DNA of 64,000 nucleotides, taken from assembly GCA_036488495.1 (NCBI GenBank), contig DASXHM010000125.1, positions 24,560-88,559 on the forward strand, in the 5' to 3' direction. Origin of the DNA: Myxococcales bacterium (GTDB taxonomy: Bacteria > Myxococcota > Myxococcia > Myxococcales > 40CM-4-68-19). The position numbers and the translations under genes were made by a program. The notes under the pieces are model-generated. The model was not told where the DNA came from and did not search any database. It was given only the letters and a program-made list of their open reading frames with translations. The first letter of the stretch is position 1; every line of letters starts with the position of its first letter. This document shows positions 50,222 to 51,464 of the stretch, in pieces.

Positions 50222-50253
50222 GCGAACACTGTCCAGCGCCACGGCTAGCCTGG
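50222..50253 (+). repeat. 32-nt direct repeat, copy B (GCGAACACTGTCCAGCGCCACGGCTAGCCTGG)
   Basis: 31 of 32 positions identical to 51433-51464, in the same orientation. Confidence 0.85.
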
Positions 50254-50257
50254 GGGC

Positions 50258-50994
50258 ATGAGCCGTCCCCGGCGCGTTGTCGCTCGCCGCGTTGGCCCGC
50301 AGGCGCCTTCAGGCCCTTCCACCGCCGCCACCCCCACCGCCGACGCCGGAGCAGGTACGTGCCAAGGAGGCGTTCATCAACGCCCTGCTCGACCGCAACC
50401 GCCCCGCCGCGCGAGAGGCATTCGAACGCATGCGTGGGGAACCTCGACCGCCGCCTGCGCTTTCGCCAGTCCAACGCGCCAAGGCCAAGCTGAAGGTAGA
50501 GTTCGTGGCGCAGTTCCTCCGGGGGCGTTTGGGCGAGCCGTGACGACGAAGCCCGCGGGATCGTTCGGCCGCCGCTGACGCCCGAACAGCAGATTGAATG
50601 CAAAGCCCTGTTCGAGCGGGTCATGCGGTGGATGAGGGACATGGGCAGCGATAGAACCAAGAGCGTACCGCAGTTTCGGTATGCACCCCCTTTGCGGATA
50701 GACACATGCGCAGGTCCGGAGGTGAGAGGATTAGGCCCTGCCTCGTCCAGTAAGACGAGCGACAGTCCTCGTTCGAGGGCGACCATGAAGGAATATAGTT
50801 CGGAGGAGATTGCAGCGATCAAATGGGCGGCGTATCAGGCGGGCCGCGCGTGGCGGGCGAAGTATCTCGGGGCGAAGAGCCAGGGCGGCAGCAAGGTCGC
50901 CGCTCCAGGCAAAGGTGGACGGCCACGAAATCCTCCGAGCACGCGAGGCATTCCGTCCGGCGCGGGCAAGGGAAACGACCCGCCGTGCAAGTGA
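50258..50994 (+). pseudogene. Decayed Pro-rich gene split over three frames
   Basis: ATG 50258 (MSRPR..) has a 1-nt insertion relative to the homologous start at 10230 (minus). Frame 0 (50277-50543) reads ..PPPPPPPPTPEQVRAKEAFINALL... Frame 1 (from ~50541) continues ..RPPLTPEQQIECKALFERVMRW.. to the stop at 50994. The PP.TPEQ...KA.F unit recurs across the frame break. Confidence 0.45.
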
Positions 50995-51236
50995 GGCGCG
51001 GCAAGAGGCCTTCCTACCGCTTCGGTGCAGCTGCTTGCCCCGGCTGAGCCTGAACGCGGCCGAGTCTCGCGAGCAGGCTCCACGCGACATCGAGCAGCGC
51101 GGCCGCGGCGTGCGGAGGCGTCAACTGCGCATCCATCTCCCTGATCTCCACAACCGGCGCGACGCCTTGCATCACCGTTGGGCATCGTAGGATTTGTGGG
51201 CGAACGCAAGTCGGTTTACCCAGCGAAGGAGGACAC

Positions 51237-51410
51237 ATGGCTCGCGGCGCAGGTAGCGGCAGTAAGCAGGGTGGTTCAGCAAAGCCGGCAAATCCGCCGG
51301 CGCAGGCGCCGAAGCCCGCGCCTCCTCGGCCGCCAAATGGCCCTAGCACTAAACCCCATCACCCTTCCGGGCCCGGGCGTGGAAACAACCCTCCTAAGAA
51401 ACAGCCGTAA
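51237..51410 (+). CDS. 57-aa Gly/Pro-rich protein ending ..SGPGRGNNPPKKQP
   Basis: ATG at 51237 is preceded by GAAGGAGGA at SD spacing. Too short for the ORF track. The C-terminal motif is shared with the end of the 50258..50994 reading frame (..SGAGKGNDPPCK). Confidence 0.5.
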   Translation: MARGAGSGSKQGGSAKPANPPAQAPKPAPPRPPNGPSTKPHHPSGPGRGNNPPKKQP

Positions 51411-51432
51411 CGTGGCAGGTAGCGGAACGCTC

Positions 51433-51464
51433 GCGAACACTGTCCAGCGCCACCGCTAGCCTGG
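51433..51464 (+). repeat. 32-nt direct repeat, copy C (GCGAACACTGTCCAGCGCCACCGCTAGCCTGG)
   Basis: 31 of 32 positions identical to 50222-50253. It lies 23 nt after the stop of the 57-aa gene and immediately before the start-less PQQ-like ORF. Confidence 0.85.

Follow-up and report, generated by a model that had tools for sequence, protein, structure and literature searches.

In integrated prophages, integrative and conjugative elements and small integrative elements, a gene-bearing segment lies between two direct repeats, attL and attR. Integron chromosomal arrays carry attC sites as near-identical repeats, and dispersed intergenic repeats (repetitive extragenic palindromic sequences and bacterial interspersed mosaic elements, REP/BIME; enterobacterial repetitive intergenic consensus sequences, ERIC; and similar families) and elements resembling miniature inverted-repeat transposable elements (MITEs) are multi-copy and structured. 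In Bacteroidales, rAID-1 clusters combine arrays of orphan immunity genes with repetitive sequences between the genes and an associated recombinase (bioRxiv 10.1101/471110). Here we describe a pair of 32-nt direct repeats (the 32-mers), and the repeated non-coding module to which they appear to belong, in a 64,000-nucleotide stretch (the window) of contig DASXHM010000125.1 from a metagenome-assembled Myxococcales genome. As in rAID-1 clusters, the locus adjoins a region of polymorphic-toxin type (Tc/Rhs-like, with Imm26) and has small genes, intergenic repeats and a recombinase nearby; unlike in those clusters, the recombinase remnants are serine-type and decayed, gene orientation is mixed and there are only three copies of the repeat. 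We favour, with moderate confidence, the explanation that the 32-mers are the tails of two copies of the module and that illegitimate rearrangements placed them near each other and joined them to a pseudogene.

The 32-mer, GCGAACACTGTCCAGCGCCAC(G/C)GCTAGCCTGG, is present on the plus strand at 50222-50253 and 51433-51464, in direct orientation, with a spacing of 1211 bp and 31 of 32 positions identical, exactly as the initial annotation had reported, and none of 100 dinucleotide-preserving shuffles gave a comparable match. Its layout is GCGAAC, 18 nt, TAGCCT, GG. Both copies and their flanks agree across independent assemblies: a JGI contig spans the two copies and all flanks at 99.8% identity, and two Logan contigs carry one copy each, with both flanks, at 100% identity. 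Taken alone, the pair is an ordinary rearrangement scar in a variable, pseudogene-rich region.

The second 32-mer is fused to a PQQ/BamB-like beta-propeller pseudogene (51465-52302, plus strand), the frame of which is open only from 51423. Two full-length homologs of ~390 aa (P0002 and P0003) have ~25 additional N-terminal residues that constitute a signal peptide and are missing here, confirming the earlier proposal that this repeat marks the point at which the gene lost its 5' end. Relative to the same homologs, ~100 C-terminal codons are also missing and there is a frameshift near 51740, neither of which had been noted before. No paralog of the PQQ gene was found within the window. Just past the 3' truncation point of the pseudogene lies one copy of a 38-nt direct repeat (52344-52381, plus strand, and 20367-20404; 89% identity), which on the minus strand reads GGAG, then ATG, then nine codons (MPRSTPRRSF).

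The segment between the 32-mers contains gene G and a 57-aa open reading frame (ORF) and no recombinase. Gene G (50258-50994, plus strand) comprises an ATG at 50258, an 88-aa ORF (50277-50543, with the TTG start of the gene at 50277) and a 123-aa ORF (50623-50994), the three pieces being in three different frames; it contains three internal PPTPEQ..K..F repeats. A word-indexed search gave no homologs of gene G; in a full HMMER scan, the 88-aa ORF had four relatives. P0187 (55% identity, 130 aa), the best of these, is continuous across the point where the frame changes in the window, indicating that gene G belongs to a genuine, though rare, family and is a pseudogene with frameshifts, in agreement with its initial description as a gene broken over three frames. 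The second gene of that description, the 57-aa ORF (51237-51410, plus strand), is indeed preceded by a Shine-Dalgarno sequence, GAAGGAGG, and by eye it resembles the C-terminal tail of gene G.

Comparison of the window with itself revealed the element to which the 32-mers most probably belonged. A 187-nt repeat, R180, is present at 17303-17489, 35683-35867 and 49137-49322, always on the plus strand and with 87-89% identity; the three copies have a common 5' end (17303, 35683 and 49137), match the full-length model and differ at their 3' ends. R180 is the first part of a non-coding module of ~0.35-0.4 kb that continues with GGTACC repeats, a tail and a gene-proximal unit of ~72 nt, U. Module copy c49 (49137-49437, plus strand) comprises R180 (49137-49322), GGTACC repeats (~49323-49385) and a tail that ends with GCGAAC (49432-49437). 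Copy c17 (17303-17570, plus strand) comprises R180, a GGTACC region and a tail, and lies upstream of a gene for a 372-aa secreted protein. Copy c35 (35683-35867, plus strand) consists of R180 only and abuts codon ~186 of a truncated recombinase gene (35353-36426, minus strand).

Unit U consists of ACGCTC (positions 1-6), the 18-nt sequence X, GCGAACACTGTCCAGCGC (7-24), CACS (25-28) and the 44-nt block Y, which runs from GCTAG to GTCGCTCGC (29-72; 50244-50287 in the window). Three copies are present. Copy A corresponds to U 7-72 (50222-50287, plus strand), of which 50222-50253 is the first 32-mer and 50254-50287 holds the ATG at 50258 and the TTG at 50277. Copy B corresponds to U 1-38 (51427-51464, plus strand), a 38-nt stub made up of ACGCTC and the second 32-mer; it ends 2 nt past TAGCCT, where it is joined to codon ~25 of the PQQ pseudogene. 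The third copy, site C (10169-10243, plus strand), contains the module tail with U 1-29 (10169-10207) and then, in an orientation reversed in place, U 29-72 (10201-10243). Its direct half matches copy B at 28 of 29 positions (10179-10207 against 51427-51455), its inverted half matches block Y with 86% identity over 44 nt, and a direct repeat, GCGCGAC, is found at 10201-10207 and 10242-10248. All R180 copies in the window, and all copies of the first part of U, are on the plus strand.

No likeness was seen to the left of X among the three sites, beyond the ACGCTC common to copies B and C, until c49 was included in the comparison. The 22 nt at 10169-10190, which cover the beginning of site C and its left flank, match the tail of c49 (49416-49437) at 21 positions, with 0.01 such matches expected by chance. 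The c49 tail stops at GCGAAC, the same six nucleotides with which copy A starts, and when 49438-50221 is spliced out the sequence aligns to site C through the tail and X without a break. Copy A is therefore the end of module c49, and the intervening 784 bp are an insertion, flanked by the 6-bp GCGAAC direct repeat, that splits the two. The insertion has two genes, both on the minus strand (165 aa, 49448-49945; and 54 aa, 49967-50131, with GAGGAG upstream), neither of which had a Pfam match, and terminal inverted repeats are not obvious. Copy B is like site C, and unlike the module of copy A, at U positions 2 and 28, and it therefore derives from a separate module copy instead of a local duplication of copy A.

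Three unrelated metagenome contigs carry relatives of R180: L069 contains a diverged full-length homolog (4719-4903; covariance model score 38 bits, E = 1e-8), and L070 (1-190) and L071 (1879-1943) contain partial ones. In L070, the partial R180 and its GGTACC repeats lie ~100 nt upstream of P0188, a gene G homolog, and in L071 the 5' end of R180 begins at the stop codon of another, P0190. R180 relatives thus stand before a gene G homolog in one unrelated metagenome and after one in another, indicating that module-gene units run in series elsewhere and that genes of the gene G type can have modules on both sides. In L069, a full R180 and three GGTACC motifs with 11-nt spacing precede a gene that, by eye and from its motifs, is terminase-small-subunit-like. 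R180 is co-oriented with the downstream gene in four of five cases.

The three window copies of R180 fold into ~9 helices, and the one-sided changes among them are all wobble-compatible on the plus strand. When the L069 homolog is included, compensatory changes occur in eight pairs and the proportion of paired cells is 92.8%, values reached by none of 500 shuffles, with the qualification that the alignment was fitted to the model and the pairing counts consequently lean towards structure. GGTACC repeats follow R180 in c49, c17, L069 and L070; these palindromes recur every 19 nt in the window (49323-49385 and 17490-17530) and every 11 nt in L069 (4905-4950) and L070 (140-190), and look like protein-binding sites. 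No curated covariance model of Rfam reached its gathering score in the window, and 48900-51700 gave only one chance-level match at E <= 5; R180 motifs gave no match, or chance matches only, in IMG/VR.

With several intergenic copies that have a common 5' end, R180 fits the description of a dispersed intergenic repeat or MITE-like element. Like REP/BIME, ERIC and MITE-like repeats, it is multi-copy, intergenic and strongly structured, has truncated and rearranged copies, and is absent from annotation libraries. It differs from them in its ~9 helices with compensatory changes, in the GGTACC repeats behind it, and in having relatives beside homologs of the same small gene in unrelated metagenomes. 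R180 is an undescribed structured element that deserves more attention than the 32-mer; it may represent a new family of structured RNAs or of recombination sites, and if it is a regulatory RNA, the family is new. The possibility that R180 is part of a recombinase gene was considered and rejected: intact homologs of the gene that c35 abuts end in a 39-aa helix-turn-helix segment, which R180 replaces, and c17 and c49 have no adjoining recombinase. A lone inverted 40-nt piece of the long R180 hairpin, 95% identical to c49, is found at 32883-32921 (minus strand).

In the window, c49, copy A, gene G with the 57-aa ORF, copy B and the PQQ remnant follow one another, and the simplest reading of this order is two consecutive module-gene units. 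Two co-oriented units in tandem would have given rise to the direct repeat pair, and the second module would then have lost ~300 nt, everything upstream of ACGCTC, through a deletion. The junctions would have arisen from illegitimate events, through microhomology or template switching, in a decaying region. In support of this explanation, comparison with homologs shows the 5' and 3' truncations and the frameshift of the PQQ gene to be real. The presence of TAnnnT followed after 6-7 nt by ATG in copies A and C, L069 and L070 suggests that U itself is probably a promoter and leaderless start region.

Several observations weigh against this explanation. The copies of U number only three, all on one metagenomic contig, and no significant U-like sequence follows R180 in c17, L069, L070 or L071, so that U could belong to only one sub-lineage of the module. 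A candidate 5' stub of R180 to the left of copy B (CGTAAC-GTGG) was not significant, and the loss of the upstream part of that module is therefore something we infer. A scan of 49900-51700 for sigma-70-type promoters (-35 and -10 consensus hexamers with 16-18 nt spacing) found no site. The way in which flanks are shared, copy A having its right arm in common with site C and copy B its left arm and variable base, is equally expected if the former two are attL and attR and the third an attP. Finally, both recombinase remnants in the window touch pieces of the module, which plain decay does not predict.

Exact scans with the 18-nt X core gave 29 single matches in GTDB representative genomes, 23 in JGI metagenome contigs and one in IMG/VR, all with unrelated flanks and all attributable to chance; the source genome is absent from these three sets. 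Because X has only chance matches there, outside this population, the scans yielded neither an empty-site allele nor a census of copies. The Y core had no match in IMG/VR.

Given the direct orientation and near identity of the 32-mers, and as proposed in the initial annotation, the copies could be att sites. According to this explanation, a 1.2-kb cassette in circular form, with gene G, the 57-aa ORF and a U, would have integrated site-specifically into the U of a resident module in front of the truncated PQQ gene, with a crossover between U 28 and 38, perhaps at the TA of the GCTAGC palindrome; copy A would be attL, copy B attR and site C a rearranged attP-like sequence, and the recombinase would be the small serine type of which remnants lie nearby or another enzyme. 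As expected for attL and attR, the repeats surround a gene-bearing segment and the outer arm of one and the inner arm of the other are common to a third copy with a recombinase remnant beside it: the right arm of copy A (34 nt past the 32-mer) is found at site C, as are the left arm of copy B (ACGCTC) and its single variable base.

The recombinase remnant, which the initial annotation had correctly placed beside a rearranged third copy at 10.2 kb, is a decayed 96-bp 5' fragment (10245-10340, minus strand) that directly abuts site C, with the junction between fragment and block Y falling at CTAG. Its codons 11-42 are clear, with weaker homology to about codon 3, and over those codons it has 90% DNA and 94% amino-acid identity to the gene at 35353-36426. 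Based on homology to the resolvase catalytic domain, it is classified as a small serine recombinase of the resolvase/invertase type (family profile hidden Markov model, E = 3e-16; tblastn against annotated recombinase genes, E = 2e-5); the fragment and stitched versions of it, which are too short for Pfam, gave no match there. The family is very large: its highly conserved 225-aa small serine recombinases form more than 100 clusters (75-89% identity) and are encoded mostly on short contigs. A profile built from 103 members matched only two loci in the window, this fragment and the gene at 35.3-36.4 kb, both of which abut module pieces. An intact 226-aa member, P0099, lies 1.1 kb downstream of the R180 module in L069, on the same strand, and in L059-L062 (2957-3131 and 3964-4483) a 5' piece of the recombinase gene, 175 bp long (-38 to codon 47), occurs a second time ~1 kb upstream, with an 830-bp insert between the duplicates. 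These associations, too, are consistent with att sites.

Against this explanation, neither the 1.2-kb segment nor its immediate neighbourhood contains a recombinase. A Pfam scan of 98 window ORFs matched 44 families, and the 25 listed include a single Resolvase match, to the gene at 35353-36426, which has lost its last ~39 residues compared with intact homologs; none intact is among the listed matches, and L069, which has an intact enzyme, lacks repeated U-like sites. No convincing core dyad is present: the best, around the TA of GGCTAGCC, matches at 8 of 13 positions. U also folds no better than shuffled sequences (-19.7 and -20.8 kcal/mol on the two strands; z = -0.7 and -0.8). The junctions in U are scattered (12/13, 29 and 72) and have no common crossover point, and when all copies are considered homology ends before position 1 or after 12, 29, 38 or 72. 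Serine integrases normally leave a shared core of only 2 bp. If the sequences outside copies A and B are joined, the PQQ N-terminus is not restored, since no frame to the left of copy A encodes an in-phase signal peptide, and the 784 bp on that side were inserted later. At site C, the in-place inversion covers 44 bp, which is probably too short for recombinase-mediated inversion and is better explained by a template switch. We therefore regard att sites as fairly unlikely. Of the initial proposal of attL/attR-like junctions or a recombination hotspot, what stands is that rearrangement junctions cluster in and around the repeat; the repeats do not resemble the attL and attR of one insertion. 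The converse possibility, a generic intergenic repeat with no link to breakpoints, also holds in one half: the 32-mer is part of a multi-copy intergenic module, but it is still linked to breakpoints.

Further observations were made on the recombinases. A GAGAG-N9-CTCTC palindrome lies just 5' of the recombinase ATG in all copies, and in L063 a family member is found 2.5 kb from an RHS gene. A breakpoint shared among recombinase genes was considered and discarded, as the positions are near but not identical (codon 42 in the window, codon 47 in L060). X was likewise considered as a decayed piece of recombinase coding sequence (minus-strand ALDSVRER, resembling ALxxLKxG); the 103-member profile finds only the two other loci in the window, and the idea is rejected because X and its left flank belong to the module tail.

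A second alternative is that the 32-mer is a cis-regulatory unit, a promoter and operator of the form GCGAAC-N18-TAGCCT, kept almost unchanged by selection in several transcription units that belong to a single mobile element or regulon, in which case its coincidence with breakpoints would be secondary. The ends of the 32-mer coincide exactly with those of a stretch made up of a -35-like hexamer, 18 nt of spacer, a TAnnnT hexamer and two further nucleotides, and the stub at copy B is promoter-sized (38 nt). An ATG is located 6 nt downstream of TAGCCT in copy A and of TAGTTT at site C; L069 has TTAGAC-N18-TAGAAT and then, after 7 nt, an ATG in frame with the downstream gene, and L070 has TACCAT, 6 nt and ATG. 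GAACACTGTCC is in addition a near-palindrome (8 of 11). The match to the -35 consensus is poor, however, the promoter scan found no site, and as read from the sequence CGAACA-N17-TAGCCT agrees with the consensus at only 6 of 12 positions. Pseudogenes lie downstream of copies A and B, making selection for expression unlikely, and at site C the -35 part is on the wrong side of the -10 part. Moreover, 31/32 identity between copies with unrelated flanks favours recent common descent over convergence. We consider selection on a regulatory unit quite unlikely as the source of the repeats; this alternative overlaps with descent from module tails and does not exclude it.

The most far-reaching alternative is that R180, the GGTACC repeats and U together serve the 225-aa serine-recombinase family as a platform for recombining gene cassettes, an analogue of integrons in Myxococcota. 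U would supply the crossover site, at the TA of GCTAGC, the GGTACC palindromes would act as accessory binding sites and module-gene units as the cassettes that are exchanged, and the 32-mer pair would be a true boundary. The contacts between recombinase remnants and modules, the position of the L069 recombinase 1.1 kb from a module and the presence of R180 on both sides of gene G homologs make this compatible with our observations and leave it unproven. As in integron cassette arrays, including chromosomal ones, co-oriented non-coding repeats lie between small, often orphan or decayed genes, and R180 is structured, with its structure kept better than its sequence. In contrast to attC sites, U does not fold into an attC-like hairpin, R180 with its GGTACC repeats (187 nt plus GGTACC) is larger than attC and lacks an RYYYAAC/GTTRRRY core pair, and the junctions are variable. 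No integrase of the IntI type is among the 25 listed of the 44 Pfam families in the window, beyond which the contig continues. A platform of this kind is very unlikely in our estimation; if it were real, it would constitute a new route to gene arrays near toxin and immunity loci, for an abundant recombinase family.

A spurious repeat, created during assembly when sequences were wrongly joined at a shared k-mer, might be suspected because the window is from a metagenome-assembled genome, because JGI contigs from this population are interrupted at 8774 and 47814 and because the assemblies differ by one 19-nt GGTACC unit at 49328-49365 (three units in the JGI contig, two in the window), but the agreement of the JGI and Logan contigs across both copies and their flanks, and a longest k-mer common to the two copies of 21 nt, which precludes a join at the usual k values, make it hardly credible. 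Descent of the 32-mers from module tails accounts best for the locus, and a practical consequence is that short direct repeats at gene truncation points can be the tails of larger repeats and should be compared with the whole contig before att sites are called.

The region of the 32-mers lies downstream of a Tc-toxin-like operon (37524-46897) and contains pseudogenes and recombinase remnants. The operon includes a TcB-like gene (38722-42891; SpvB/FG-GAP/TcdB_mid, 1389 aa), a gene for a pentapeptide-repeat protein and a 1027-aa ORF (42873-45956) without a Pfam match, which we assume from its position to be TcC/Rhs-like. The truncated recombinase gene lies 1.1 kb upstream of the operon, an Imm26 immunity gene is located at 48403-48864, and the rest of the window consists of ordinary chromosomal genes. 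The 39 kb between the two breaks in the JGI assembly are on neither of its contigs; no repeats were found at the contig ends (8774 and 47814), and differences between strains or locally low coverage may account for the breaks. Two 32-nt repeats in inverted orientation, GATCGACCTAGCAGCTGCGCGACGCGAYGATC, with 31 of 32 positions identical, are present at 13291-13322 and 26558-26589, 13 kb apart and apparently intergenic; this pair and the 38-nt repeat at 52344-52381 and 20367-20404 are, like the 32-mers, short repeats located at module or gene ends.

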